This document shows positions 48,900-64,000 of a stretch of 64,000 nucleotides of DNA, piece by piece. Source of the DNA: a virus. Where the stretch lies: IMG/VR virus record IMGVR_UViG_2920962495_000002, positions 2,873 to 66,872 of that record; one strand, given 5' to 3'. The notes beneath the pieces were generated by a model. The model worked only from the letters and a program-made list of their open reading frames with translations, was not told the origin of the DNA and made no database searches. Position 1 is the stretch's first letter; every line of letters begins with the position of its first letter. The translations under genes and the position numbers were made by a program.

Positions 48900-51800
48900 A
48901 TGGCATATATCACACTCAATAAAGCGCATACTCACCATAAAACAACTATCAATGGTCAGCCTACTAGCCAGTATAGCCGCTACGAAACAGGTTTAATCAC
49001 TGGCAACAAGCGAGACTTGCCAGCCATTCTAGCGGATAGTACGGGCAGTGACGGCTATAGTTTTGATAGTGCAGTCGGTAGTGCTGATGATAGCTGGCAC
49101 GTATTAAACGCCTTTGATAAACAGGGCTTGTATGTCGATAGTATTGCGGTTGGCGGCGCTATGGATGCCGATCACGCTACCGTGGTAGCGCGCACCCAGC
49201 TTGACAGCCTAGGCGCAGCTAACCTAAAAGTGATTGGTGAGGGATTGGTTCAGTTTGACAGTATCAATCAATCGAACGCTGGCACGTTTTCAGTTGACGC
49301 CATCAACAAGCTTATGGACAACCCTTCGCAGGATAAAAACTACCTACCGATCATTACCGCCTCAGAGCTTGCTTATGAAGCTGATCGCGTTACCTTTGAC
49401 AGTGTGGAGTGGGGCGAAGGAGCAGAGCTATTAAGCCATGACGGGCGTGATAGCACACTCATGCTAGACATGACTCGTGCCGATACTCGCAGCGACTTAG
49501 TAAACGAATTTGAGCTTGCAGACGTACTCGACTTGCTGGGCGCTGAACCTGAGCAGAGCTTTGATGCCTTGATGGACACCAAAAACCGTTTAGGGCTATT
49601 GAAAGATCGCTTATATAACGCGATGAGCCGTGCCGGTAACGATACGGTATCAGTTACTAATGTCACTGAAACCAAGCCATTTAAGCGCCAGGGCGTGACT
49701 AATATTGCCTTTGTGTTTGATCTATCAGACGGTCAAAAATTGTCTATCTGGTTCCACAATCCAGACAGTACGCCATCCAAGTTAATGCCAAGCGATATCA
49801 TGATTAGCTGGAAATGGATGTTAAACAAGCGTGATGTGACCGCCGCATTATCACCAAAACAAGGTGATAACGTCCAGTTGCCTGCGCTGGCTAGTCGAAT
49901 CATGCGCGTAGCTGCCAAAAACTCTATGCCATTTAAGCGTACACAAGCCAAGCGCTTAAAGCTAGATAATGAGCTAGCAGAAGCAAAAATGACGATTGAA
50001 AATAAGACTGCCACTATCGAGCAGTTGGATCAAGATATTGCCAGCCTAAATAGCCAGATTGATGCGGCTATGAAAGCGCCTAAAGTTGAGCTTGTGGTTG
50101 AGCCGGTCGTCGAACCTGTTATAGAAACGTCGGTAGTTGACGAAACTGTAGCAGAGCCAGCTGGCCAAGACAGCACTACGCAAGATGACACCGATGTCGC
50201 AGCACCTATCACTATCACAGGTAAAGAGATTGACGTAAGTGAGGATGTTGATTTTAAAACAGCAAAAAACAATGCGATGGCATATTTTGACAACAATTTA
50301 AAAGATAAGGTTGTTTTCTGTCCTGCCATTGACAGTGATGTTTTGTTGAGACGGCGCGGTGGTAAACATATTGCTAAAGCAAATCATACGTTTCGTGAAA
50401 AACTAAAGCTGGTGGCCGCTATTCCTGAAATGATTAAACAGGGCAAATATGGGCATTACACTGCTTTGAACAAAGAAAAAGGCTCTAATATCGAAGGGTA
50501 TTATGTATTGAATGTTGCAGTGGTAGTAGGTGGCAATCTAAAAGCAGCAAGAGTCGTACTGGAGAAGAATAACGAAGGCGAGGTTTTATATGACATAGGT
50601 ATAGACAAAAAAGAAGCCTTAGCAGCTCTAGGGGATACTATCACCAAAAATACATTTGATGGGTTCACCGGATCTAGCCAATACCAAGACTTCTTAGATG
50701 AATCTTACCAAGCGGATGACAGTGATGTCAACCAGTTTGACAATGTGCTTGAAACAGCGATCCCTGATAACTATTCAGGGGTTGCTTCAAGCACACTTAA
50801 TATTAAAGCACCAAATAGTGAGGATGTCAACCAAGATCAAACTATGTTCGATAAGGCAGACCTTGCAACAGTCGATGGGGTGCTGAATATGTTTATTTTA
50901 AACGAGACATCTATCGAAGATACCGCAAATCACAACACTGATAACGAATTAGCTGATACTAATCCTAATGAAAATACTAGTACCTATGTTGCTGATTCGT
51001 TTAGCGAGCTGAGCTATATATCAGTTACTAAAACCGATGATAACCAGTACGAGGCATCAATAAAATCAATAAATAACGATAGCAAATTATCCGGCAGCTT
51101 AACCGAGATTAAAGGCTTTATCTCTAACTACTTAGAAGGCTTAGGCGCGGATATGTCAGTTTTGTCCCTAACTAATGGCGCGGATGTTTTGAAAACCGAC
51201 ACCGATCCAGATCACACCCCAACCAACCCCAACAACAAAAAAATCACCAAAGGCAAATCCAATAAGGCCAAAACCCCTAAAGGCACCAAAATTGAAAGCG
51301 TCTTTGCTTTAGTTGATGCTAAATTCTTGATCGCCTCGCATACCGCGAACGGCAGCAAAAACCCTAAATACCCACAAGAGCTACAGCCGCGTGACCGTGC
51401 GCGTGAATCCTCTATTGCTTGGGTACAAAAAACCTCAAGAGAACTTGATCCTGAGAGCTTAGGTCGTACTGGCCGTGTTGATACCGGCGCGCCTATCGTG
51501 GGTGATGACCTAGTGGTAGAAAGCGGCAACGGTCGCACTATTGCGATCAAGATGGCCTACGCCAATGGCGATGCTAGCGAGTACAGAGAATGGCTTGCTG
51601 AGAACGCTGATATGTTCGGTATGACCGCTAAGCAAGTAGAGAGCTATAAGCAGCCTATCCTTGTGCGTATGCGTACCACGCAAGTGAACCGTAGTGAGTT
51701 TGCAGTAGAAGCGAACCAAGACGACAAACTAAGCTTTACCGCCTCAGAACGCGCCAAATCAGATGCTAAGCGTGTTAATGCTGGCATGTTAGAGCTATTC

Positions 51801-53165
51801 GATCCTAGCGAGTCAGGCGACATCTTAGCCGCCAGTAACCGCCCATTCGTAAAATCGTTTCTAGCCAGCCTAGGCGCGACAGAAGCGGCGCAATATACCG
51901 ACAGTAACGGCAATCCAACTCAAGCGCTAGTCGCTCGCATTAAAGGCGCATTGTTCAGTAAAGCCTATGACGATGACCGCTTGCTTGAGATGATGGCAGA
52001 TCAAACAAAGCCTGAGCTACAAAACACCCTAAACGCCCTAACAATGGCCGCGCCTAAGTTTGTAGCAGCACAAGCGGTCAACCGTAGTGACGCGCAGGAC
52101 TTGGCTGAAAAAGTGGTTGATAGTGTCGAGCAGTCGCTAAGCGACGAGGTTAAAAACGCCATTGTTGATGCCACCAACATGATTATGAACGCCAAGCTTA
52201 GCAATCAAGATATTAAAGAATACGTGCTGCAACAAGGGTTATTTGAGCAAGTGGACGATGCCACCGCTGAACTTGCGGTATTCCTAGCCGCTAATGCTCG
52301 CAGTGCTAAGAAGATGACCGATTATTTCAATGCAATGGCAAGCTATATCGAGCAGGACAGCGTAAGCCGTCAAACACTAGATATGTTCGGTGAGCCTGAG
52401 CCGCTATCACTCGCTGATGTTATCGCACACGCCAACAACCAAGTTAATGATAATACCGACACTATAGGGACGCTTGATATGTTTAATGAGACGGTAGTAG
52501 AAGAAGCGGTAGTGACTGACAACCAAGCTACCACAAGCGACAAGAATTACTCATCCAGCAACCCTTATGCTGCTTACGCTAATGATGACGAAGATGCTAT
52601 GAATAACGCCGACCAATGGGAGGCCAGAGAGCCGCTAACAGAAAACCGTTTGGATCAGCTTAACAAAATGGCAGAATCGCTTGGTTTTAGCACCTTTATC
52701 GAATCAAGACATGCAGGCTTAGGGGTATTCCAAGCAGCCAAAGAAGTATCTAATCGCAAGGTCGAGATTGACGGTAAATTCAAAAACAATGACGGCCAGT
52801 CATCAAAAGAAGCGCCTAGAGACTTCACTATCGAAAAATCTGAAAACGGAAACATTGTTGATTACCAGTACACCAACGACTTATCAGATTATATTAAAAA
52901 GGCGAACGACTGGCTAAATCAAGCCAGCCCACTTGACGACTTCAACACAGCCAACCTAGCCGCCAAAGTCGACGGCATAGTCAATGAGATAAACTCAAGC
53001 GACTTTGACCCAGAGATTTTTGATGTTGATGCGCTAAGCGCTATTGCTGAAGAAGCTGAGGGCAATAGCGAGCTTACCGCAAAACTTGAGGCTGCAAGTG
53101 AGGTCTATCAAAACAAGTTGATGACTATCGCCATGCAAGCGATGTCTGACATGGCAGGCAACTAA
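48900..53165 (+). CDS. darA: DarA-like large polyvalent virion protein (DarA-N, LPD3-like and DdrB-like ParB domains)
   Basis: KPFKRQGVTNIAFVFDLSDGQKLSIWFH (DarA-N), ITITGKEI...RRGGKH...EVLYD (LPD3-like), PQELQPRDR...GAPIVGDDLVVESGNGR (DdrB/ParB-like). Confidence 0.75.
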   Translation: MAYITLNKAHTHHKTTINGQPTSQYSRYETGLITGNKRDLPAILADSTGSDGYSFDSAVGSADDSWHVLNAFDKQGLYVDSIAVGGAMDADHATVVARTQLDSLGAANLKVIGEGLVQFDSINQSNAGTFSVDAINKLMDNPSQDKNYLPIITASELAYEADRVTFDSVEWGEGAELLSHDGRDSTLMLDMTRADTRSDLVNEFELADVLDLLGAEPEQSFDALMDTKNRLGLLKDRLYNAMSRAGNDTVSVTNVTETKPFKRQGVTNIAFVFDLSDGQKLSIWFHNPDSTPSKLMPSDIMISWKWMLNKRDVTAALSPKQGDNVQLPALASRIMRVAAKNSMPFKRTQAKRLKLDNELAEAKMTIENKTATIEQLDQDIASLNSQIDAAMKAPKVELVVEPVVEPVIETSVVDETVAEPAGQDSTTQDDTDVAAPITITGKEIDVSEDVDFKTAKNNAMAYFDNNLKDKVVFCPAIDSDVLLRRRGGKHIAKANHTFREKLKLVAAIPEMIKQGKYGHYTALNKEKGSNIEGYYVLNVAVVVGGNLKAARVVLEKNNEGEVLYDIGIDKKEALAALGDTITKNTFDGFTGSSQYQDFLDESYQADDSDVNQFDNVLETAIPDNYSGVASSTLNIKAPNSEDVNQDQTMFDKADLATVDGVLNMFILNETSIEDTANHNTDNELADTNPNENTSTYVADSFSELSYISVTKTDDNQYEASIKSINNDSKLSGSLTEIKGFISNYLEGLGADMSVLSLTNGADVLKTDTDPDHTPTNPNNKKITKGKSNKAKTPKGTKIESVFALVDAKFLIASHTANGSKNPKYPQELQPRDRARESSIAWVQKTSRELDPESLGRTGRVDTGAPIVGDDLVVESGNGRTIAIKMAYANGDASEYREWLAENADMFGMTAKQVESYKQPILVRMRTTQVNRSEFAVEANQDDKLSFTASERAKSDAKRVNAGMLELFDPSESGDILAASNRPFVKSFLASLGATEAAQYTDSNGNPTQALVARIKGALFSKAYDDDRLLEMMADQTKPELQNTLNALTMAAPKFVAAQAVNRSDAQDLAEKVVDSVEQSLSDEVKNAIVDATNMIMNAKLSNQDIKEYVLQQGLFEQVDDATAELAVFLAANARSAKKMTDYFNAMASYIEQDSVSRQTLDMFGEPEPLSLADVIAHANNQVNDNTDTIGTLDMFNETVVEEAVVTDNQATTSDKNYSSSNPYAAYANDDEDAMNNADQWEAREPLTENRLDQLNKMAESLGFSTFIESRHAGLGVFQAAKEVSNRKVEIDGKFKNNDGQSSKEAPRDFTIEKSENGNIVDYQYTNDLSDYIKKANDWLNQASPLDDFNTANLAAKVDGIVNEINSSDFDPEIFDVDALSAIAEEAEGNSELTAKLEAASEVYQNKLMTIAMQAMSDMAGN

Positions 53166-55018: not shown

Positions 55019-55495
55019 ATGCCAGACAAATACTATTCAGCTGTGCAGACAACCAAACTACTGGCATTGTCAGGTAGCGGTACGGTTATTAGCGCAGTCA
55101 GTGTGATGGTACAACTCAATGAGCCTCACACCTTTTTATATCTAAGTTTACCGTATTGGTATTTTTTAGTAGCGACAATTTTACTGGTTTTTGTGGGCGC
55201 AGGGCTTGCAATGACCAACGATTACATGAAGAAGCAAGGCACATTTTGGGGCAATCTGCTGCTAGCGATAGTGGTTGGTTTTATCATCTCATTCGTTATC
55301 TTGCCAGCAATCAATGACAAGCCAACGGTCGCCATTATGATGCTAACCGCTTTTTTTGGTGGACTACTTGGTACGATATTTTTACGCATGATACTAGAAT
55401 TGTCAGCAGATGACGATCTCAAGGTGGGTGTTCAGTCTATTGTTAAAAACCTTATCCTAAAATGGATCAATAGATTCTCAGGGGGTGATAAGTGA
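55019..55495 (+). CDS. Holin-like multi-pass membrane protein
   Basis: About four TM segments; first gene of the lysis cassette. Confidence 0.6.
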   Translation: MPDKYYSAVQTTKLLALSGSGTVISAVSVMVQLNEPHTFLYLSLPYWYFLVATILLVFVGAGLAMTNDYMKKQGTFWGNLLLAIVVGFIISFVILPAINDKPTVAIMMLTAFFGGLLGTIFLRMILELSADDDLKVGVQSIVKNLILKWINRFSGGDK

Positions 55496-55797
55496 TACCT
55501 ATCATCAACACATTATTAGCTTTTACTGGCCTCATGATATGCACCTGTTGTTTATTGTCAGATCGATTCAATACAACATCAAAAGAAACCCTTGGACAGT
55601 TGGGCGGCTGGATTATCGTATGGATATTCTTAGTCTCAGCGTCACTACCAAGCAGTAGTTTTGAGCCGTCGTGGTCTACCACAGCAGCTCGAACAATCGT
55701 TTTGATTTTAAATATTTGGCACTTTAAAAAGTTGATTATTAGGCGATGCAAAAGAGCGCACGGCCTACGCAAACCAATTAAACAAAAAGAGGTGTAA
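55492..55797 (+). CDS. Holin/antiholin-like three-TM protein
   Basis: Three hydrophobic segments, basic C-terminal tail, directly before the endolysin. Confidence 0.6.
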   Translation: MIPIINTLLAFTGLMICTCCLLSDRFNTTSKETLGQLGGWIIVWIFLVSASLPSSSFEPSWSTTAARTIVLILNIWHFKKLIIRRCKRAHGLRKPIKQKEV

Positions 55798-55799
55798 TC

Positions 55800-56528
55800 A
55801 TGGCAATTATTGAAATGCAAAAAGAGCTGGGCGTACTTGCTGATGGTTGGTGGGGCGGTGACTCGCAACGAGCCTACCTAGCACAAGGCAAACAGCTTGA
55901 TTTTAACTGGGCTTATCTGAGACGCAAGCTAGCAGGCTCTTTTAGTCAATCTCAAGTAGATGGCTTTAACCGTATTATGGCAGCTTGCAACCGTGCCAAG
56001 CTGTCGCCGCAGCACGCCGCCTATATTCTAGCGACTGTATGGCATGAGAGCGCCACAACCATGACTCCTATTAATGAGTATGGCAAGGGTCGCAAAAAGC
56101 GTTATGGTCAATGGTTTAAAAACAGCAAAGGGGTTGTTTATGGCATTCGTAATGGCAATCTTAGCCGTCCGGCTTACTTAAAATCTGATTATCCTCACCT
56201 ATTTTTTGGGCGCGGGGATTGCCAGCTTACGTGGCTCGATAACTATATCAAGTTGGGGTTAATACTAGGCGTAGACCTTGCTAACAACCCCGATCTTGCG
56301 CTTGAACCCGATATTTCAGCCGACATATTAGTAACCGGATCAATGCAAGGTCTGTTTACCGGCAAAAGTATTCCGCATTATGTTACGTTTGGCACTTTTA
56401 ATGAGTTTGTGCTGGCGCGTTATGTCATCAATGGACGTGATAAGCGCGATCTTATTGCTGGATATGCTAAAACTATTATGACTGCCATACAGTTTACGGA
56501 TGATAAATCCGATATGCTTGCAGCCTAA
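55800..56528 (+). CDS. Glycoside hydrolase family 19 endolysin
   Basis: AYILATVWHES..M.PINEYG, FGRGDCQLTWLDNY, NPDLALEP motifs. Confidence 0.85.
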   Translation: MAIIEMQKELGVLADGWWGGDSQRAYLAQGKQLDFNWAYLRRKLAGSFSQSQVDGFNRIMAACNRAKLSPQHAAYILATVWHESATTMTPINEYGKGRKKRYGQWFKNSKGVVYGIRNGNLSRPAYLKSDYPHLFFGRGDCQLTWLDNYIKLGLILGVDLANNPDLALEPDISADILVTGSMQGLFTGKSIPHYVTFGTFNEFVLARYVINGRDKRDLIAGYAKTIMTAIQFTDDKSDMLAA

Positions 56529-56551
56529 AATCAACTAAGAAAGGATTAATC

Positions 56552-57214
56552 ATGGCAGACATGAAACGATTTAACGCACTAAAAAAAGTAAATGCCAAGC
56601 CAATGAGCCGTCAAGAGTATAACGACTTGCGAGGCTGGCGTTTACCGGCAGATGAAGATGGTAGCGATAAGGGGTATTTGATTGAAGATATCAATAGTTC
56701 GCCTAATACTTTGGAGTTTGACGGTTATGTATCGTGGATGCCCAAAGAAATGTTTGATGACCAGTTTTATGAATGTACTGCAGGACAAACAGGCGACTTA
56801 CCAGTTAAATGCACCGCACCTTCTGATCCCGAACACGAATTAACCGAAGATGAAATCGCTACGCTGGCAAGTGGCGGCTCTTTATGTGATTGCTGTGAGT
56901 TTGTGGAAGGTGGAAGCGAACACCCAATCAAAGAAGGTGATCTTGTTGACTTTGGCACAGCCCTACACCTGATGGAAGTGGGCGAGCGTGTGCAGCGTGA
57001 AGGCTGGAACGGCAAGGGTATGTTTGTGTATATCGTGCCAGCCGCAAGCTATCCAGCACAGCGTAACACCAAGGGCGTGTTAGTGGGCGACTATCCTGAT
57101 GACATGGTGCCATACGGTGCGTATATCGCCCTTAAAACCGCAAGCGGCGAAGTTGTACCGTGGACTATCAGCCAGTCGGACGCACTTACTACGGACTGGA
57201 TGCTGGCTGTCTAG
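56552..57214 (+). CDS. DUF2829/Tad2-like protein with an extra N-terminal domain
   Basis: FGTALHLMEVGERVQREGWNGKGMF...VPWTISQSDALTTDW; N-domain AKPMSRQEYNDLRGW...YVSWMPKEMF. Confidence 0.8.
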   Translation: MADMKRFNALKKVNAKPMSRQEYNDLRGWRLPADEDGSDKGYLIEDINSSPNTLEFDGYVSWMPKEMFDDQFYECTAGQTGDLPVKCTAPSDPEHELTEDEIATLASGGSLCDCCEFVEGGSEHPIKEGDLVDFGTALHLMEVGERVQREGWNGKGMFVYIVPAASYPAQRNTKGVLVGDYPDDMVPYGAYIALKTASGEVVPWTISQSDALTTDWMLAV

Positions 57215-57243: not shown

Positions 57244-57272
57244 AAGCCCTATCAAAAAGATAGGGCTTTTTT
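57244..57272 (+). terminator. Intrinsic terminator
   Basis: AAGCCCTATC-AAAAA-GATAGGGCTT-TTTT. Confidence 0.85.
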
Positions 57273-57274
57273 GT

Positions 57275-57314
57275 GGAACACACTAAAAGCTGGCAAGTCG
57301 TTATACCTCATAAT
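57275..57314 (+). promoter_or_regulatory. Late promoter motif GGAACAC-N27-CATAAT
   Basis: Upstream of the darB-like gene. Confidence 0.75.
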
Positions 57315-57347
57315 AAGGAATCGATAACACCAACCAGGCCACCAATT

Positions 57348-60300
57348 ATGAAAGAGAAACTTGCTATATTAAAAAGACTTCGGACCGCGCTTGCCAGCTT
57401 CAAGGCGTCTGATAATATTCAAAGCCGCGCAAGCACTGCTAAAGACTTGTTATCTGTCTTAAAAGAGCTGGGTGCGTTCGCCAAGTTAAAAACAGACAAC
57501 ACGGTGCAGTCGAACACAGGTACTAAAGATCAGTCCAGCCAAATGGTTGACCGATCTAGTATTGCGGTTCCTGAAAAGGCGGCCGCCCGCCAAAAAGCCA
57601 ATGACGCCGCTATCGAGTTGCTGGCAAGCATTAAAGAGCAAGGCTTAACCCGTGACGACTTAACCGATGAGCAGTTAGAAACACTTGCTAAATATACCGG
57701 TAGTGGTGGCGGATTAAAGGCTAAAGCCGATGAGAACGGTAAGCGGCTTCGTGGTAGTCAGTACGAGTATTATACGCCGCTAGATGTTGCTAGCGCCTTG
57801 TGGGACTTAGCAAGCGAGACGGGGTTTAGTGGCGGCAAGGTGCTTGACCCAAGTGCGGGGACCGGTGTGTTTGCAGCGACTAGCCCAGAAAGCGCTGTTA
57901 TTGATAGTATCGAGCTTGATGAGACATCGGGGGCCATTGCTCAATTACTGAATGATGGTGAGCGCAGTAAAACGATTATCTCTCCTTTTGAGGCGCAGGC
58001 CAAAATCATGGCGAACAATAGCCTTGATATGATTATTACTAACGTACCGTTTGGTGGTAACAAGGTGCGCGGTGACAATCCGAAAGAGGATGACTGCTAT
58101 AGAAAAGAGTCGCTTGAGAATTACTTTATTTTAAGATCACTTGAGAAGCTAAAATATGGCGGATTAGCGGTATTTATCACGCCCACTTCGGTCGTATCAG
58201 GACGCGCGAACGATAAGAAAAAACTACGCAAGCTCACCAGCCTAAAAGCCGACTTCTTGGGGGCATATCGTATGCCAACAGAGGTTTTTGATCAAACTGG
58301 CGCAAGTGTTGTGACTGATGTTGTTATCTATCGCAAACACAGTAGCGATGCCACAGATCAGATAATGGACCTATACAATGGCGGCGGTATTGATACCCTT
58401 GCTCAATCAAAAGTATTTTGGGATGACTACCTAAGCGGTGATTACTTTAAAAAAGCTGAACATAAAAAATTCATCTTAGGTGACGAAACTACAACCATAA
58501 ACCAATGGGGTAAAGAGATTGAGACCGTTAAGGAGAATAAGAAAAACCCTAAAGTGTCAAAAATGCTTAAAAAGTTTGGTGACAGCCGTATCGACTGGGA
58601 TATGTTGGGTTCGGCAGGTGTTGAAATTATTGATTACAAAAACGGCGATGTCGTATTTCAAGATGGCAAGCAATTAGAGTATCAAGACGGACGCTGGCAG
58701 GCGATAGAAAAAGAAGTGACTAGCACTGAGCTTGAGATACAAAAACAACTTGCCAGCATGGGTAGTGCTATCGACATGGTGATGGCTCGCGTGACCTATG
58801 AGCAGATAAGCGCCACGTTTGAGTATAGCCAAAAAACGGGTCAAGCAGGATTAATCCCTAGCGATGCTTTGTCCATGTTAGATCGCGCCTCAAAAAGTGC
58901 CATCGCTGATCGCCCCGCTGCATGGAATTGTGTATTGTGTGCGCAAGCTATCCGGGAGGCTATTGAGCTACATGAATATGGCTATGACTTTAAGAATGGC
59001 GAGCCTGAAATCACAGATTTTATGAAATACGCCTTTTTAGATGGCAAAAACGCTAAGTTATCTGGTGACGCCAAGCAAGATCATAAATTCGTAGCACTGT
59101 ATTATGCCAATGGCAAGTATAACGACGCTTGGCTTGGTAATATAAATAGCGAGGTTGTCGATAATGGCGCCGCTAAGAGTTATCAAAGCGTTATTGCACG
59201 TATTCAGTACGAAAATAAAAGCCTTCATATCACGCCTGAGCAGCTAAAACAGATTGATCCTACCGCTGATCCTATCAATAACGATGACTGGTTTGTCAAT
59301 CATGATGGCAGCCAAATTATCGCCGCTAATGACTTCTTAGTCGGTAGTTTGTCGGACCGCTTAAAAGATATTGATAAGCAGATTGAACTTACTAATAATG
59401 AGCAGATTAAAGCCAAACTTATTAAGCAAAAATCTATTGCCCGTGACAGTGTGGCGCGTATCGATGTTAAGCGCCTTGAGCTTGATCTTCGTACCCCGCT
59501 TATTAGTGCTGAAGACAAGGTAAGGTTTTTAAAGCAAACGGTCCATAAAGACGCTTTTGTCGCTTATAACGCACAAGGTCGCGGCATTGCAGATATCGAT
59601 ATTAAAGGCAGTAGCACCAAAGACAGTCTTGAGAAAAAAGACAAGGACAAGCTGTATAATCGTATCGGTGATTGGCTTGGCAAAGGAACCGTCACGCTAG
59701 GCAGCGTTAAGCTTGAGACTATGAGCCAGCGTGAGGCCCTAAACTGGATGACGGAGCAGATCAATACCGCTAACATCAAGTTTAATTCATGGGTTAAAGC
59801 CAATAAAAACATCATGTCAGGTCTTGAGGATATGATGACCAATGAAGACAATTTATATTTCACTCAGAATGCAGATGAGACGCCGATTGATATTGCTGGC
59901 ATGAACCCCGAACTTAGCTTGCATGGCTATCAGAATGCCGAGGTGCGCAAGCAAGGCCGCTTCTTTGGCGGTATTAACGGCTTTGGCGTCGGACTTGGTA
60001 AAACCTTCACCTCACTTGCCAGCGTCCAGCATGTGCATAATATTGGCGTTAAAAAGAAAACAATTTTTGTGGTTCCTAACAGCGTGTTGTCCAACTGGCG
60101 CAAAGAGGCTGCTTTTGCTTATCAAAATACCGATGATTGTATTTTTGTGGGCCTACGTGAGGATGGTGAAAAATTCCGTGTCATGTCAAACAAATATGAC
60201 GAGGACTTACTAAGCGCTATCGATGGCAAGTACCGCAAAATATTCATGACGTTTGAGGCGTTCAAGCGCATTCGCTTAAAGGACAGCACACTAGGCGATT

Positions 60301-63300
60301 ATGCGGACTACATCAAACAAAACGATACCGCCTTTTCAGAAAAAGAGTTGCAAAAAGACAATGAGAAAGTAAATGGTTTAACCGCTGATCTTATCGAGCG
60401 TTTGACGATGAACAGTAACGCGCCATTTTTGGAAGATATGCGCGTAGATAGCGTGGTGATCGATGAGGCCCACGCCTTTAAAAACTCGATTACCGCACCT
60501 AACACTGACGACCGCATTAAATACCTATCACAGCCTGGTCAATCAGCGCGTGGTGAGGATGCGCAAGCCAAGCTTTGGTATGTGCGTGGCAGCACGCCTA
60601 ATAACGATGGTGTACAGCTACTCACAGCGACGCCTATCACCAATAGTCCGCTTGAGATTTACTCTATGTTATCGCTGGCAAGCGGCCGTGATACGATTAA
60701 TAAAATGTGCGGCGGTATCAATGGCGCTGATGACTTCATTCAGATCATGTGCCAGATTCAAGAAGAGGTGATGCCCACTATTGATGGCGGCGAACGCTCG
60801 CAAAACGTCTTTACCGGTATTCGCAACGCTAATATCTTGCGTACTGTCATTGGATCAAATGCGGTTATTAAAGACGCGCAAGATGTCGGTATGTCGGTGG
60901 TTATCCCAGATCGTGAAGAGGTCGCCGTTGAGGTTAATTTAGGCGAAGGCGTAACGGATCAGCTGCGTATGTTCCAAGATGCTTATACCATCGCTAAACA
61001 GGTTGAAAAAGATCAGCTCGATAATGAGCTTAACAACCCCAATCACCCGCAAAGCCCGTTTAACCCCAATAGCCCGTTTAGTATTATTCAAAAAAAGTAC
61101 GGCGAAGAAGTGGAGTTGATGGCTCACCCGTTTAACCTCATTCGCAAGATGGATGTCATGATTGCTGATAGCGAGTTTAGCGAAATGGCAACCTTCTACG
61201 ACTTTGAGAAGTCACAAGAAAAGCTTGCGCAATCAGTGATTGATAAGTTTAATAAAAAATCTTATTCAGATAGCCGTAAGCGCCTAAGCCCTTATACCAA
61301 TGAGGATAATGCTAAAGCGGTCTACACTAAAGACGGTGATACAAAGGTTTTTAAAGAATATAAAATCACGGTTGAGGCTAAGATAGTGTTGCACGATGGT
61401 CGAAAGCGCATTGTCGTCGACACACTAAACGGTAAAACGCAATCAAGATTTGAAGATATCGCAGATAAAGACAAGCTTAATCTTGATGTGACCACTTCAG
61501 CAAAAATCGCCGCCATGCTTGAGAATTTTAAGACCGAACAAGCAGAGCCGCGCGGTGCCAATGCAGACGGTACGACTAGCACTATCGTTAAGCAGATTGT
61601 CTTTTGCGACCATCTGTTTTTGCACAACAAGATTAAAAAGTTGATTGCTAAGCGTGCAGGCGTGCCAGCCAGCAAAATCGCGATCATTACCGGTCAGATT
61701 AACAATGAACCGGATGAGATGATCGATATTCAAGATGGCTTTAACGCTGAGAGTGACGACAATCAGTATCAGGTGATTATTGCCAACAAAAAAGCTGAGG
61801 TCGGTATTAACTTGCAGCGTGGTACGCAGGCAATCCACCATTTAACAACCGGTTGGACCCCTGATAGCTTAGAGCAGCGTAACGGGCGCGGCGCGCGTCA
61901 AGGTAACAAAACGCAAAAGGTGGCTATTTATCATTACGATGCTGATGGTACGTTTGATGAGTTTAAACGCACGATGATTGATAAAAAAGACGAGTGGATC
62001 AGTAGTGTATTAAAAGACGATGGTAAAAACACCATTGAGGTCACAGGTAGTATTTCGCGCACTGAACAGGACGCGCTTATCTCCACAATGGGCAATAAAG
62101 ACGCTATGCGTGAGTATCAGGCCACCAAAGACGCCAAAGAGAAGGAGGTTCGGTACAATGCCGCCGTTAAGCGTCAAAGTATCAATATGGACGTAGTGAA
62201 TGAGCAGGCTAGCATGATGGCAAACCTATCTCTTGATAAGTTTTATGAACAGGCTGTTATCAATGTGGTCAGCCTTATTCGTGACAATAGAAAGCTTCTC
62301 ACTAAAAATGAGAAATCTACTGCCAAGGCAGACACCCGCAAAAAGAACGAGCTGCTTTATGAGAACTCAAAACAGATCGCGCTTGACCAGCTAAATGATA
62401 TTTTAGACTCGGTGAGTGTGCAGCGTTATGAGCAGGCTGAGGATTGGAATAAAACGCACAAGTATGTCCCTGTCGGTGGTATTGCTAGCCCTGATACCAC
62501 AGCAGACAGTATTTATGACAGCATAATGAATGATACTACTGAGTACCCACCAAGCAAGACGGATGAGTGGGCTAAGACCTTTACCAATAAACAGGTGCTA
62601 GGCAGCCCTTATAGCTTCAGTAACGATAAACTTATTATCAACGAGGGCGGTATCTATCAAGCGGCTTATGACGAGGTTAAAGAAACCGCTGAAGGGCTTA
62701 TTAATCAGTCCGTTATTGCAGCAAACTACATTGCCGAAGAGACAGGCATTGATGGTATTAGCTTGCCCGCTGATGCTGGCGAGCGGATTGCTAGAAAAGA
62801 GGCGGTTATTGTGAATGGCGTTTACATTCAGGTGGGTTCAATCGTTATTAAACCGCAAGCTGGTGATAGGCCAGACGCTATTTACGTGGCTCGCATGGAT
62901 AGCGGTAAGCTGACGCTAAGTAAGATTGGCAAGGATCGATTTAGTGGCAGTAACGGGGTTTATTCTATCTCTAATAACACGCCAGCAGGGGTTATCTCTA
63001 GTACAGATAAAGTTATTAACAAGGGTAGTGGTGATTACTTGAGTGCAATAAAGCAAATGGCCGCCTTTGAGGACAACTTGCACCTACAAGGCGCTTTAAA
63101 ACCGCTGGCAACCAAGTATAGCGATATGATACCAGAGGTGGCAGAGTACCGCGATGATAGCATTAGACCCGTATGGACCATGAGCGCTGACTTCGGTGGC
63201 AGTCATGCCAATATTGAAAATAGTCCTATCGCTATCGTGTTACCCTTGTTTGTTTTAAACGCTGGCACGCCGTTTGCTAAAGCGATGTTGGTTCAGTATG

Positions 63301-64000
63301 AAAAACAAGGCTTTGAGATTAACCTTGATAACGGAACCTTTATGGCTAAGGACGATGTTACTGTTAAGCGCAATCACTACTACCCAGGGCAGACCGATTA
63401 CTTTAATGCCGTTACTGATCTCATTAAAAATAGCGGGGTTAAGATTGCAGCAAGCGATAAAGAAGTCGTTGATAATGACCGTATTCTTTATAGCCTGCTA
63501 AAAGAGAATGGCGCCGCTACTTTTGACGCTGTAAAATCCGCTAAAGAGTCGATAACGGCTGAGACTGACCCAGCAAGCTTTGAAGGTATTGCGACCGCTA
63601 TTTTTGACAATCACCTATACGATGACAAGTATATCGATAAAGATATTGGCGACGATGTTAAACTAGCATTAATCAATACTGCCTACAAAGATGCTTCACC
63701 TACCTACATTAGATCGTTTGATGTGATTGAGTATTTTACCGAAGCGTTAAAAAAAGCTGTTATCAGTGAAGCGGCAAGCAAGGCGGCAAAAAATGGTGAT
63801 AGCGTCGAGCAGTTTTCAGAAAATCTAGGTTTGGATGGATCAAAACTGCAAGCGATTTTAGATGGCGGGGCGACTGAGCATAATATCAATGAGTTTGGAC
63901 GTTTTGATGACCTAAAAAGCACGGTAGATAAAGAAAAGGCGAAGGCGTATTTTGAGGCTTTTGAAGGTGGTAGCATTACCGCGCTTAAGGCCAATATGAA
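57348..64000 (+). CDS. darB: DarB-like N6-methyltransferase plus SNF2 helicase, >2200 aa, 3' truncated (absent from ORF track)
   Basis: Hand-translated spot checks all in one frame: VLDPSAGTG (D at 57846), NVPF (58041), GLGKT (59991), DEAH (60462), QRNGRGARQG (about 61875), open at 64000. Full continuity was not checked codon by codon. Confidence 0.88.
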   Translation, partial: MKEKLAILKRLRTALASFKASDNIQSRASTAKDLLSVLKELGAFAKLKTDNTVQSNTGTKDQSSQMVDRSSIAVPEKAAARQKANDAAIELLASIKEQGLTRDDLTDEQLETLAKYTGSGGGLKAKADENGKRLRGSQYEYYTPLDVASALWDLASETGFSGGKVLDPSAGTGVFAATSPESAVIDSIELDETSGAIAQLLNDGERSKTIISPFEAQAKIMANNSLDMIITNVPFGGNKVRGDNPKEDDCYRKESLENYFILRSLEKLKYGGLAVFITPTSVVSGRANDKKKLRKLTSLKADFLGAYRMPTEVFDQTGASVVTDVVIYRKHSSDATDQIMDLYNGGGIDTLAQSKVFWDDYLSGDYFKKAEHKKFILGDETTTINQWGKEIETVKENKKNPKVSKMLKKFGDSRIDWDMLGSAGVEIIDYKNGDVVFQDGKQLEYQDGRWQAIEKEVTSTELEIQKQLASMGSAIDMVMARVTYEQISATFEYSQKTGQAGLIPSDALSMLDRASKSAIADRPAAWNCVLCAQAIREAIELHEYGYDFKNGEPEITDFMKYAFLDGKNAKLSGDAKQDHKFVALYYANGKYNDAWLGNINSEVVDNGAAKSYQSVIARIQYENKSLHITPEQLKQIDPTADPINNDDWFVNHDGSQIIAANDFLVGSLSDRLKDIDKQIELTNNEQIKAKLIKQKSIARDSVARIDVKRLELDLRTPLISAEDKVRFLKQTVHKDAFVAYNAQGRGIADIDIKGSSTKDSLEKKDKDKLYNRIGDWLGKGTVTLGSVKLETMSQREALNWMTEQINTANIKFNSWVKANKNIMSGLEDMMTNEDNLYFTQNADETPIDIAGMNPELSLHGYQNAEVRKQGRFFGGINGFGVGLGKTFTSLASVQHVHNIGVKKKTIFVVPNSVLSNWRKEAAFAYQNTDDCIFVGLREDGEKFRVMSNKYDEDLLSAIDGKYRKIFMTFEAFKRIRLKDSTLGDYADYIKQNDTAFSEKELQKDNEKVNGLTADLIERLTMNSNAPFLEDMRVDSVVIDEAHAFKNSITAPNTDDRIKYLSQPGQSARGEDAQAKLWYVRGSTPNNDGVQLLTATPITNSPLEIYSMLSLASGRDTINKMCGGINGADDFIQIMCQIQEEVMPTIDGGERSQNVFTGIRNANILRTVIGSNAVIKDAQDVGMSVVIPDREEVAVEVNLGEGVTDQLRMFQDAYTIAKQVEKDQLDNELNNPNHPQSPFNPNSPFSIIQKKYGEEVELMAHPFNLIRKMDVMIADSEFSEMATFYDFEKSQEKLAQSVIDKFNKKSYSDSRKRLSPYTNEDNAKAVYTKDGDTKVFKEYKITVEAKIVLHDGRKRIVVDTLNGKTQSRFEDIADKDKLNLDVTTSAKIAAMLENFKTEQAEPRGANADGTTSTIVKQIVFCDHLFLHNKIKKLIAKRAGVPASKIAIITGQINNEPDEMIDIQDGFNAESDDNQYQVIIANKKAEVGINLQRGTQAIHHLTTGWTPDSLEQRNGRGARQGNKTQKVAIYHYDADGTFDEFKRTMIDKKDEWISSVLKDDGKNTIEVTGSISRTEQDALISTMGNKDAMREYQATKDAKEKEVRYNAAVKRQSINMDVVNEQASMMANLSLDKFYEQAVINVVSLIRDNRKLLTKNEKSTAKADTRKKNELLYENSKQIALDQLNDILDSVSVQRYEQAEDWNKTHKYVPVGGIASPDTTADSIYDSIMNDTTEYPPSKTDEWAKTFTNKQVLGSPYSFSNDKLIINEGGIYQAAYDEVKETAEGLINQSVIAANYIAEETGIDGISLPADAGERIARKEAVIVNGVYIQVGSIVIKPQAGDRPDAIYVARMDSGKLTLSKIGKDRFSGSNGVYSISNNTPAGVISSTDKVINKGSGDYLSAIKQMAAFEDNLHLQGALKPLATKYSDMIPEVAEYRDDSIRPVWTMSADFGGSHANIENSPIAIVLPLFVLNAGTPFAKAMLVQYEKQGFEINLDNGTFMAKDDVTVKRNHYYPGQTDYFNAVTDLIKNSGVKIAASDKEVVDNDRILYSLLKENGAATFDAVKSAKESITAETDPASFEGIATAIFDNHLYDDKYIDKDIGDDVKLALINTAYKDASPTYIRSFDVIEYFTEALKKAVISEAASKAAKNGDSVEQFSENLGLDGSKLQAILDGGATEHNINEFGRFDDLKSTVDKEKAKAYFEAFEGGSITALKANM

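Follow-up and report, generated by a model that had tools for sequence, protein, structure and literature searches.

Does the domain that a temperate phage of Psychrobacter carries in front of a Tad2-like sponge merely assist that sponge, or is it a counter-defence module in its own right? The gene that raises this question, P0001, encodes an N-terminal domain (the N-domain), a Cys/His connector and a Tad2-family domain, and lies in a 64-kb window (the whole stretch of DNA analysed here) between lysis genes and a giant DarB-like gene. Nucleotide sponges are among the chief means that phages have of evading CBASS, Thoeris and Pycsar immunity, and a late-2026 review counts seven families of them. 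We propose that P0001 is a modular counter-defence protein directed against nucleotide-signalling immunity in which the N-domain acts independently, and we put the probability of this statement as a whole at about 0.55.

Organization of the locus

The window, part of a roughly 74.5-kb contig from a Psychrobacter-type genome, is otherwise that of a temperate myovirus, with genes for terminase, portal, sheath, baseplate and tape measure proteins, and it also encodes a PmgG-like protein, an anti-repressor and a replication initiator. An earlier reading of the letters alone (the sequence-only reading) had placed the gene between endolysin and darB, and had given it an extra N-terminal domain fused through an acidic, Cys-containing linker, and each of these points holds. 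The upstream gene matches phrog_181, and the downstream ORF matches phrog_11801 (E 0), phrog_10089 ('DarB-like antirestriction', E 1.4e-70) and the helicase family phrog_62. The extra N-terminal region is a separate conserved domain, as seen from phrog_872, which spans P0001 residues 2-218 (E 2.9e-48), and phrog_9467, which spans residues 4-74, and the linker contains Cys87, Cys112, Cys114 and Cys115. An AF2 model of the full-length protein, built with 95 sequences in the alignment, has a mean pLDDT of 88.4, and by GC content the gene does not stand out as foreign. The features of the locus are listed in Table 1.

Table 1. Features of the P0001 locus, with positions in the window.
Feature	Position	Strand	Remarks
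Lysis cassette membrane proteins	55019-55495 (158 aa) and 55492-55797	+	158-aa protein has weak membrane-family matches only
Endolysin	55800-56528	+	phrog_181, E 1.1e-32; borderline Glyco_hydro_19
Shine-Dalgarno AGGA	56542-56545	+	ATG at 56552 is 6 nt further on; read directly from the sequence
Sponge ORF P0001	56552-57214	+	Uninterrupted, 220 aa; N-domain, Cys/His connector, Tad2 domain
N-terminal domain, residues 4-75	56561-56776	+	'N4 gp49 N-terminal' family
Acidic connector, residues 76-129	56777-56938	+	Conserved Cys/His tetrad
Tad2-family domain, residues 130-219	56939-57208	+	PF11195 match; putative sponge domain
Intrinsic-terminator-like hairpin and T-run	57244-57275	+	10-bp stem with 5 G-C pairs; hairpin 57244-57268
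DarB-like giant methyltransferase/helicase ORF	57273-63998	+	>2242 aa; runs off the window

The endolysin stop codon and P0001 are separated by just 23 nt, and no promoter-like site was found between the two genes; co-transcription with the late lysis genes is therefore the simplest reading. A strong terminator-like hairpin with a T-run divides P0001 from the DarB-like ORF and is predicted to end the transcription unit. A word resembling a P1 late promoter (ACACTAAAAG) is present beside the DarB-like gene and was considered as a signal, but it is not enriched, with 8 matches in the window, a number reached in 19 of 100 shuffles.

The same neighbours are found together in two other prophages, G072 and G109, as read from genomes of the genus Psychrobacter. 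The window has the order lysis cassette, sponge gene, terminator and DarB-like gene. In G072 a giant ORF with a DarB-like C-terminus comes first, next an Acb4-Sequestin gene and, sharing 4 nt with it, an N-domain-connector-Tad2 gene, and then a gene for a membrane protein, a small ORF and the endolysin gene; in G109 the giant ORF is followed by an Acb4-connector-Tad2 gene, two small ORFs and the endolysin gene. Because the trio of lysis, sponge and DarB-like genes recurs amid unrelated flanking DNA, we regard the site as a hotspot, like that of the N4-like phages. The window's own genome contains no match to PF13876 (Acb4) or PF21825 (Sequestin). The suggestion that a place in the late lysis operon is unusual for an anti-defence gene is weakened by these comparisons, in that a sponge gene lies between the DarB-like gene and the lysis cassette in both of the other prophages. 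Nor would late expression be out of keeping with a role against Thoeris. According to published accounts, side tail fibre proteins determine whether a phage is sensitive to type II Thoeris, and escape from type IV Thoeris arises by phage mutations in the capsid vertex protein; with defences that depend in this way on late structural proteins, a late-expressed sponge is not implausible. Candidate targets are present in potential hosts, ThsB-type TIR and SMODS cyclase (CD-NTase) domains each occurring in 22 of the 154 genomes of the genus.

The Tad2 domain and the connector

The third module has the Tad2 fold, and the assignment of the C-terminal 90 or so residues to Tad2/DUF2829, first made from a sequence motif, is borne out by the profile match, the fold and the ligand-contact residues. 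Residues 133-218 align to positions 2-72 of the 73 in the Pfam profile PF11195 (Tad2-like), scoring 73.5 bits where the cut-off is 25 (E 2e-20). The motif is present in both its first part (F134, G135, A137, L138, G144, R149, and G151, W152, N153, G154, K, G, M, F158) and its second (P203, W204, S207, Q, D210, L, D215 and W216). A phmmer search of the PDB recovers the solved Tad2 proteins at E values from 3e-18 to 9e-10, with ModTad2 9eib and Tad2 8v3e at 3e-18, HgmTad2 at 1.8e-12 and SPO1 Tad2 at 1.5e-11. The AF2 model has a pLDDT of about 95 across residues 131-220, and in the comparison of predicted structure with Tad2 that the sequence-only reading had proposed, all Foldseek matches at E<=1e-6 are Tad2 structures (target TM 0.63-0.86). 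The best of these is ModTad2 9eib with His-ADPR (E 9.5e-9, 42% identity, TM 0.79-0.86).

The solved Tad2 proteins (ModTad2 9eib and 8v3e; SPO1 Tad2 8sme/f/g; HgmTad2/AcrIIA7 8kbi-m) have in common with P0001 the fold and the WNG and W..SQ(S/T)D motifs, but they are single-domain proteins of about 90-100 aa whereas P0001 is multi-domain. The residues of HgmTad2 that contact gcADPR, W21/N22/G23, W87 and S90/T92/D93 (Li et al.), correspond in the phmmer alignment to W152/N153/G154, W204 and S207/S209/D210, with a single T to S change, and 17 relatives all have G151, W152, N153 and D210. HgmTad2 has a second pocket, for cyclic dinucleotides, that needs a 41-residue insertion together with R31 and N85 (Li et al.). 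In pockets of this HgmTad2/SptTad2 type the insertion after beta2 is of 35-41 aa and is accompanied by R31 and N85; in P0001 the insertion is 27 aa (residues 163-189; it is 24 aa in SPO1 Tad2), V162 stands in the place of R31, and N85 faces a gap in the alignment. With the short beta2 insertion and the HgmTad2 cGG residues missing, a cyclic-dinucleotide pocket of the HgmTad2 type is therefore not expected.

Sequence and model together make it very probable that the C-terminal module is a Tad2-type sponge, an addition to a sponge family already described. The ligands of the solved proteins are His-ADPR for ModTad2, the nearest solved relative, which fails on type I Thoeris, and gcADPR for SPO1 Tad2. 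By homology the P0001 module would form a tetramer, which in the Tad2 family has its pockets between protomers, and would sequester TIR-made ADP-ribose-derived signals (1''-3' gcADPR and/or His-ADPR), and the Thoeris effector would then never be switched on.

The connector that precedes the Tad2 domain is conserved at C87 (89%), H95 (87%), C112 (98%) and C114 (96%) in 117 connector-bearing sequences, and its Cys-His-Cys-Cys tetrad suggests a small metal site. It is modelled with a short helix at residues 99-106 and a pLDDT of 61-90. On its N-terminal side this connector may have the N-domain, Acb4, a WDGH domain or no module, and on its C-terminal side Tad2, Acb4 or Sequestin; we picture it as a reusable joint between modules in this phage lineage, which may bind metal.

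Comparisons among close Psychrobacter relatives show that whole modules have been exchanged about this connector. The last 141 residues of P0001, comprising connector and Tad2, are up to 92% identical in these relatives, and the first module is the N-domain, Acb4 (as in P0060) or the WDGH domain PF25311 (as in P0106), with Sequestin inserted in some (P0064 and P0085). P0060, for example, shares 92% identity with P0001 over everything from residue 79 on, and has Acb4 in front instead of the N-domain. At the nucleotide level, similarity to the Acb4-bearing gene of G109 extends from nt 56786 (codon 79) to 57199, and to N-domain-bearing relatives from 56561 to 57199, and in no blastn relative does it reach into the flanks of the gene. 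Given the internal start of similarity and its end at the gene borders, we take the gene for a cassette that has a module junction inside it. Locus DNA has no relatives in the plasmid collection, and only the endolysin and a 72-bp piece are matched in the phage collection. We read the gene as a cassette at a hotspot between lysis genes and the giant DarB-like gene, where it is probably transcribed with the late lysis genes.

A widespread family of N-terminal domains

The N-domain of P0001 belongs to a recognised and very widespread family that still lacks a name or a characterised role. It scores 119.5 bits against the family profile (built from alignment A4) and contains the motif R..YN..RGW.LP..E...D.GYL ... 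N ... GY.SW.P..F. Conserved positions include R20, Y23, N24, R27, G28, W29, P32, E35 and D39, and further along G41, L43, N52, G58, Y59, W62, P64 and F68. When modelled alone it has a pLDDT of 95 and the order strand-helix-strand-strand-helix; in the monomer model, residues 1-12 are unpaired and not packed into the sheet. By residue count its net charge is about -5; known sponges use positively charged pockets, and the acidity of the domain counts against its being one.

Searches of reference collections with the domain return little. There is no Pfam match to the N-terminal region (residues 1-86) even at E<=10, PF13876 and PF21825 included, and none to the N-domain in NCBIfam; PHROGs place it only in 'unknown function' families (phrog_872 and phrog_9467), and the protein atlas yields only unnamed viral clusters. 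Foldseek finds nothing below E 1 in a copy of the PDB without the RyR Tad structure, and the best match in a wide VIA-align search (Z 3.4; DUF1653, chromo/Tudor/CarD-like) is below the noise level stated for that tool. Identity with several described families was considered and rejected. The N-domain is not a divergent Acb4: PF13876, although called 'N4 Gp49', matches N4 gp48 and not N4 gp49 or the N-domain, and the Pfam search that missed PF13876 in P0001 does find it in P0060 and in N4 gp48. Nor is it Sequestin, as there is no PF21825 match and the fold is of mixed strand and helix whereas Sequestin is an all-helical domain of 60-80 aa. Lockin, a beta-rich hexamer absent from complete phage genomes, and TadIV-1, a two-helix protein confined to Straboviridae, are both rejected by their published descriptions alone.

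The extent of the family depends on how it is sought. A phmmer search with residues 1-77 gives 1,257 representative clusters at 50% identity (E<=1e-3), and among proteins of 36-188 aa a profile search gives 6,934 or more clusters (90% identity), whereas a single-sequence word-indexed search returns only three short proteins. Among phage records, whether complete or partial, 124 contain the domain, and many of these are N4-like; across its thousands of clusters it is represented in N4-like and P22-like phages and in phages of Vibrio, Klebsiella, Bacteroides and Psychrobacter. A hit to the 1,980-aa protein P0166, with 8 matched stretches, was discarded as a false positive, this being a repetitive surface protein.

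The N-domain has a narrow range of recognised partners. Partner statistics cover the closest 134-150 of the 1,257 representatives, and the Pfam partners in 134 of these are Tad2 (47), Sequestin PF21825 (39), Acb4 PF13876 (17) and the Acb2/Tad1 hairpin (3), with none else; all are nucleotide-signal sponges. About 30-40 further N-domain proteins have partner regions with no Pfam match. The placement varies, the N-domain being N-terminal, between Acb4 and Sequestin, or C-terminal. It also occurs by itself: stand-alone proteins of 73-99 aa account for 24 of the 120 best short matches, several of them encoded inside contigs of 25-44 kb, and the viral clusters in the protein atlas are of 67-93 aa. 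Twenty key residues are 83-100% conserved in each of the Tad2, Sequestin, Acb4, unknown-partner and stand-alone groups (at least 12 sequences each), and in the smaller Sequestin+Tad2 group (7 members) A15 and E45 are down to 57%. Among the twenty are the polar or aromatic residues R20, Y23, N24, R27, W29, E35, D39, N52, Y59 and W62, and this motif is kept in the sequences whatever the partner.

A member from a model phage is gp49 of Escherichia phage N4 (YP_950527, 'DUF2829 domain-containing protein'), which like P0001 has an N-domain followed by Tad2. The two proteins are 30% identical in full-length BLASTP (E 2e-32), with the N-domain aligning to gp49 residues 14-73, and the N-domain alone is 43.9% identical in a tblastn comparison with N4. 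N4 gp49 differs in that its domains are joined directly within 160 aa, whereas P0001 has the extra 54-residue Cys/His connector. They also differ in genomic context, as gp49 adjoins the Acb4 gene gp48 by the virion RNA polymerase, in the published anti-signalling hotspot of N4-like phages, whereas P0001 belongs to a temperate myovirus and has lysis genes on one side and a DarB-like gene on the other. In G072 the N-domain shares one locus with Acb4, Sequestin and Tad2, and in N4 it adjoins Acb4 (gp48) and Tad2 (within gp49); it is therefore not a mere replacement for one of them.

A more distant relationship is seen with RyR Tad, gp68 of Pectobacterium phage CB1, a new sponge described together with the N4-like anti-signalling hotspot (Fedorova et al., bioRxiv 10.64898/2026.06.04.730250). 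The N-domains of gp68 and P0001 are distantly homologous (BLASTP E 4e-5; 20.8 bits for gp68 against the profile), and that of gp68 likewise precedes a Thoeris sponge domain, but the C-terminal sponge has an RyR-repeat fold and not that of Tad2. In the RyR Tad crystal structure the N-domain forms a strand-swapped dimer with a five-stranded sheet, and as an isolated fragment, gp68_N, it showed no activity towards type I Thoeris in the work of Fedorova et al. However, the gp68 N-domain keeps the hydrophobic core and is without R20, N24, R27, W29, P32, E35 and N52; as it is without the conserved polar motif, the published negative result covers a degenerate member and one defence system only. No paper in our literature search gives the canonical N-domain a name or an assay, and none has functional data for N4 gp49.

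Joining of sponges in one polypeptide has precedents in the Acb4-Tad2 and Acb4-Sequestin fusions (Pasteurella phage Pm86; Pseudomonas phage Ab09 gp59), which follow the same 'beads on a string' logic as P0001. The first module of P0001 is not Acb4, unlike in those fusions, although in near-identical Psychrobacter relatives the arrangement is Acb4-connector-Tad2. Fusions of Acb4 with Tad2 counter CBASS as well as Thoeris, and it was through its fusion to Acb4 and Tad2 sponges that Sequestin itself was discovered (Tal et al., bioRxiv 10.1101/2025.07.12.664507). As that survey was built on Pfam families, it was blind to the N-domain, which has no Pfam model.

Possible roles of the N-domain

We favor the interpretation that the N-domain is an independent anti-signalling module, because it is found in the company of sponges only, has stand-alone forms, keeps its polar motif independently of the partner, and is interchanged with Acb4; that it acts in this way seems to us somewhat probable. 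It would have its own ligand or target, so that more kinds of signalling defence are blocked. Its working form is probably a strand-swapped dimer, and any ligand would be a signal other than that taken by Tad2, Sequestin or Acb4. The sequence-only reading had raised the possibility of a second sponge, and the evidence on this narrower point is divided. Partners from four sponge families, the stand-alone forms and the swap with Acb4 speak for it, and the inactivity of gp68_N and a role in dimerisation speak against it. We therefore keep the suggestion that the N-domain is itself a small-molecule sponge as possible but somewhat doubtful. In similarly tentative terms, and with chances a little short of even, the gp49-type N-domain may constitute a new and very abundant phage anti-signalling family, of sponges or inhibitors, that acts on something other than the targets of Tad2, Sequestin and Acb4.

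The main rival is that the N-domain is a helper without a ligand, which by strand-swapped dimerisation or stabilisation raises the valency, solubility or local concentration of the attached sponge, such that P0001 would be functionally a single Tad2 sponge. This fits with RyR Tad, in which the N-domain contributes a domain-swapped five-stranded sheet in dimerisation and the isolated fragment is inactive, and the unpacked residues 1-12 of the P0001 monomer model are as expected of a swapped strand; the acidic character of the domain, and its attachment to four or five unrelated sponge folds, are likewise explicable by a generic helper. However, stand-alone genes are common and offer nothing for a pure helper to help, and Tad2, Acb4 and Sequestin all oligomerise without aid. 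Moreover, polar or aromatic residues in loops (R20, Y23, N24, R27, W29, E35, D39 and N52) make up most of the conserved positions, irrespective of the partner, and the conserved polar residues are exactly those lost in the inactive gp68_N, in which the core is kept. On balance we think a helper role rather unlikely.

It is also conceivable that the N-domain binds a protein, either blocking a defence sensor or effector, as Tad3 reportedly does, or shielding the phage from guards such as Panoptes that sense sponges. Association with sponges alone would be expected of a module that makes up for what a sponge costs its phage (Panoptes is triggered by Acb2, Tad1/2 and Acb4), and an acidic surface with conserved aromatic residues would suit a protein interface, as would the weak likeness in fold to chromo, Tudor and SH3-like binders (Z about 3). 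These arguments are purely circumstantial, however, with the fold matches below any meaningful threshold, and we consider protein binding improbable. A role outside signalling altogether, for instance as an anti-CRISPR or as an accessory protein of lysis or the virion, could be entertained from the annotation of homologues in phages Huey, Louie and phi1_146050 as 'anti-CRISPR protein' and from the position just downstream of endolysin. But the AcrIIA7 activity of HgmTad2 was not reproducible and its sponge activity has been shown structurally (Li et al.), the Tad2 ligand-contact residues are conserved in P0001, DNA similarity ends at the gene borders, and N4 and other relatives carry the gene in non-lysis contexts; such a role is thus very improbable indeed.

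Returning to the N-domain as an independent anti-signalling module, we note that phages attach it almost only to sponges, which makes it a good candidate for a new anti-immunity module. The fusion logic that led to Sequestin, when applied here, leads to a much larger family, one without a name and invisible to a survey based on Pfam. The family offers a tractable member in N4 gp49 and a clear mutational target in its Arg/Tyr/Trp/Asn motif, and either outcome would be informative: if the N-domain binds a signal it would represent one more sponge family, and perhaps a new signal, and if it only dimerises it would show how phages build multivalent sponges. The locus itself shows that sponge modules are shuffled as cassettes at a single hotspot beside anti-restriction and lysis genes. 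If the N-domain is indeed anti-signalling, then such a module has been present all along in the model phage N4, overlooked by fusion-based searches for want of a Pfam model, and to the same modular toolkit one could add the uncharacterised Cys-His-Cys-Cys connector and WDGH domain.

Module combinations around the N-domain

The connector between the N-domain and the Tad2 sponge domain of the 220-residue protein has the appearance of a linker, but each member of its Cys87/His95/Cys112/Cys114 tetrad is kept in 87-98% of connector-bearing proteins (n=117), and from this conservation the four residues may form a small metal-binding knuckle. Another arrangement is seen in genome G072 of the genus Psychrobacter, in which a 4-nt overlap joins an Acb4-Sequestin gene to an N-domain-connector-Tad2 gene, such that the two coupled genes together encode four modules. 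They are flanked by a 2,209-aa ORF with a DarB-like C-terminus and by a lysis cassette.

Other relatives, outside the window, carry a WDGH domain (PF25311, E 4.7e-43; P0106, P0086, P0094 and others), which fills the slot of the N-domain or of Acb4 ahead of the same connector and Tad2. Because the same fusion logic applies, the WDGH domain is a further candidate anti-signalling module; a literature search on this domain found no paper. In about 30-40 relative proteins the N-domain is fused to 60-200 extra residues without a Pfam match, and these regions may hide additional unrecognised sponge families.

Other genes of the window

The gene for the 1,421-aa protein has the portal region on one side and a PmgG-like gene on the other, and the protein matches two families of large phage proteins of unknown function. 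Its N-terminal part also matches phrog_1926, annotated as 'released from the phage upon host infection', and this match, taken with the DarB-like gene, points to a group of proteins delivered by the virion. The 158-aa and 101-aa membrane-protein ORFs overlap by 4 nt and presumably encode a holin and an antiholin of a kind not described before; PHROG and NCBIfam searches of both gave no match, and Pfam matches of the 158-aa ORF are only weak, sub-threshold ones to membrane families.

Features of the window and of related loci
Feature	Position or protein	Strand	Remark
1,421-aa protein	48900-53165	+	phrog_5143 (E 4e-182), phrog_2299
Membrane-protein ORF pair (158 aa; 101 aa)	55019-55797	+	directly upstream of endolysin
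Connector tetrad	56810-56893 (codons 87-114)	+	conservation
Acb4-Sequestin and N-domain-connector-Tad2 genes	L012 6954-8257		G072, contig C56
N-domain with unmatched partner region, examples	P0125, P0157, P0199, P0225, P0253, P0275, P0280		relatives
Phage N4 gp48 and gp49	L001 2591-3444		PF13876/RefSeq name conflict

Naming of the phage N4 proteins

In the RefSeq numbering of phage N4, gp48 is the PF13876/Acb4 protein and gp49 the N-domain-Tad2 protein, which conflicts with the Pfam name 'N4 Gp49' for PF13876. This name could misdirect annotation.
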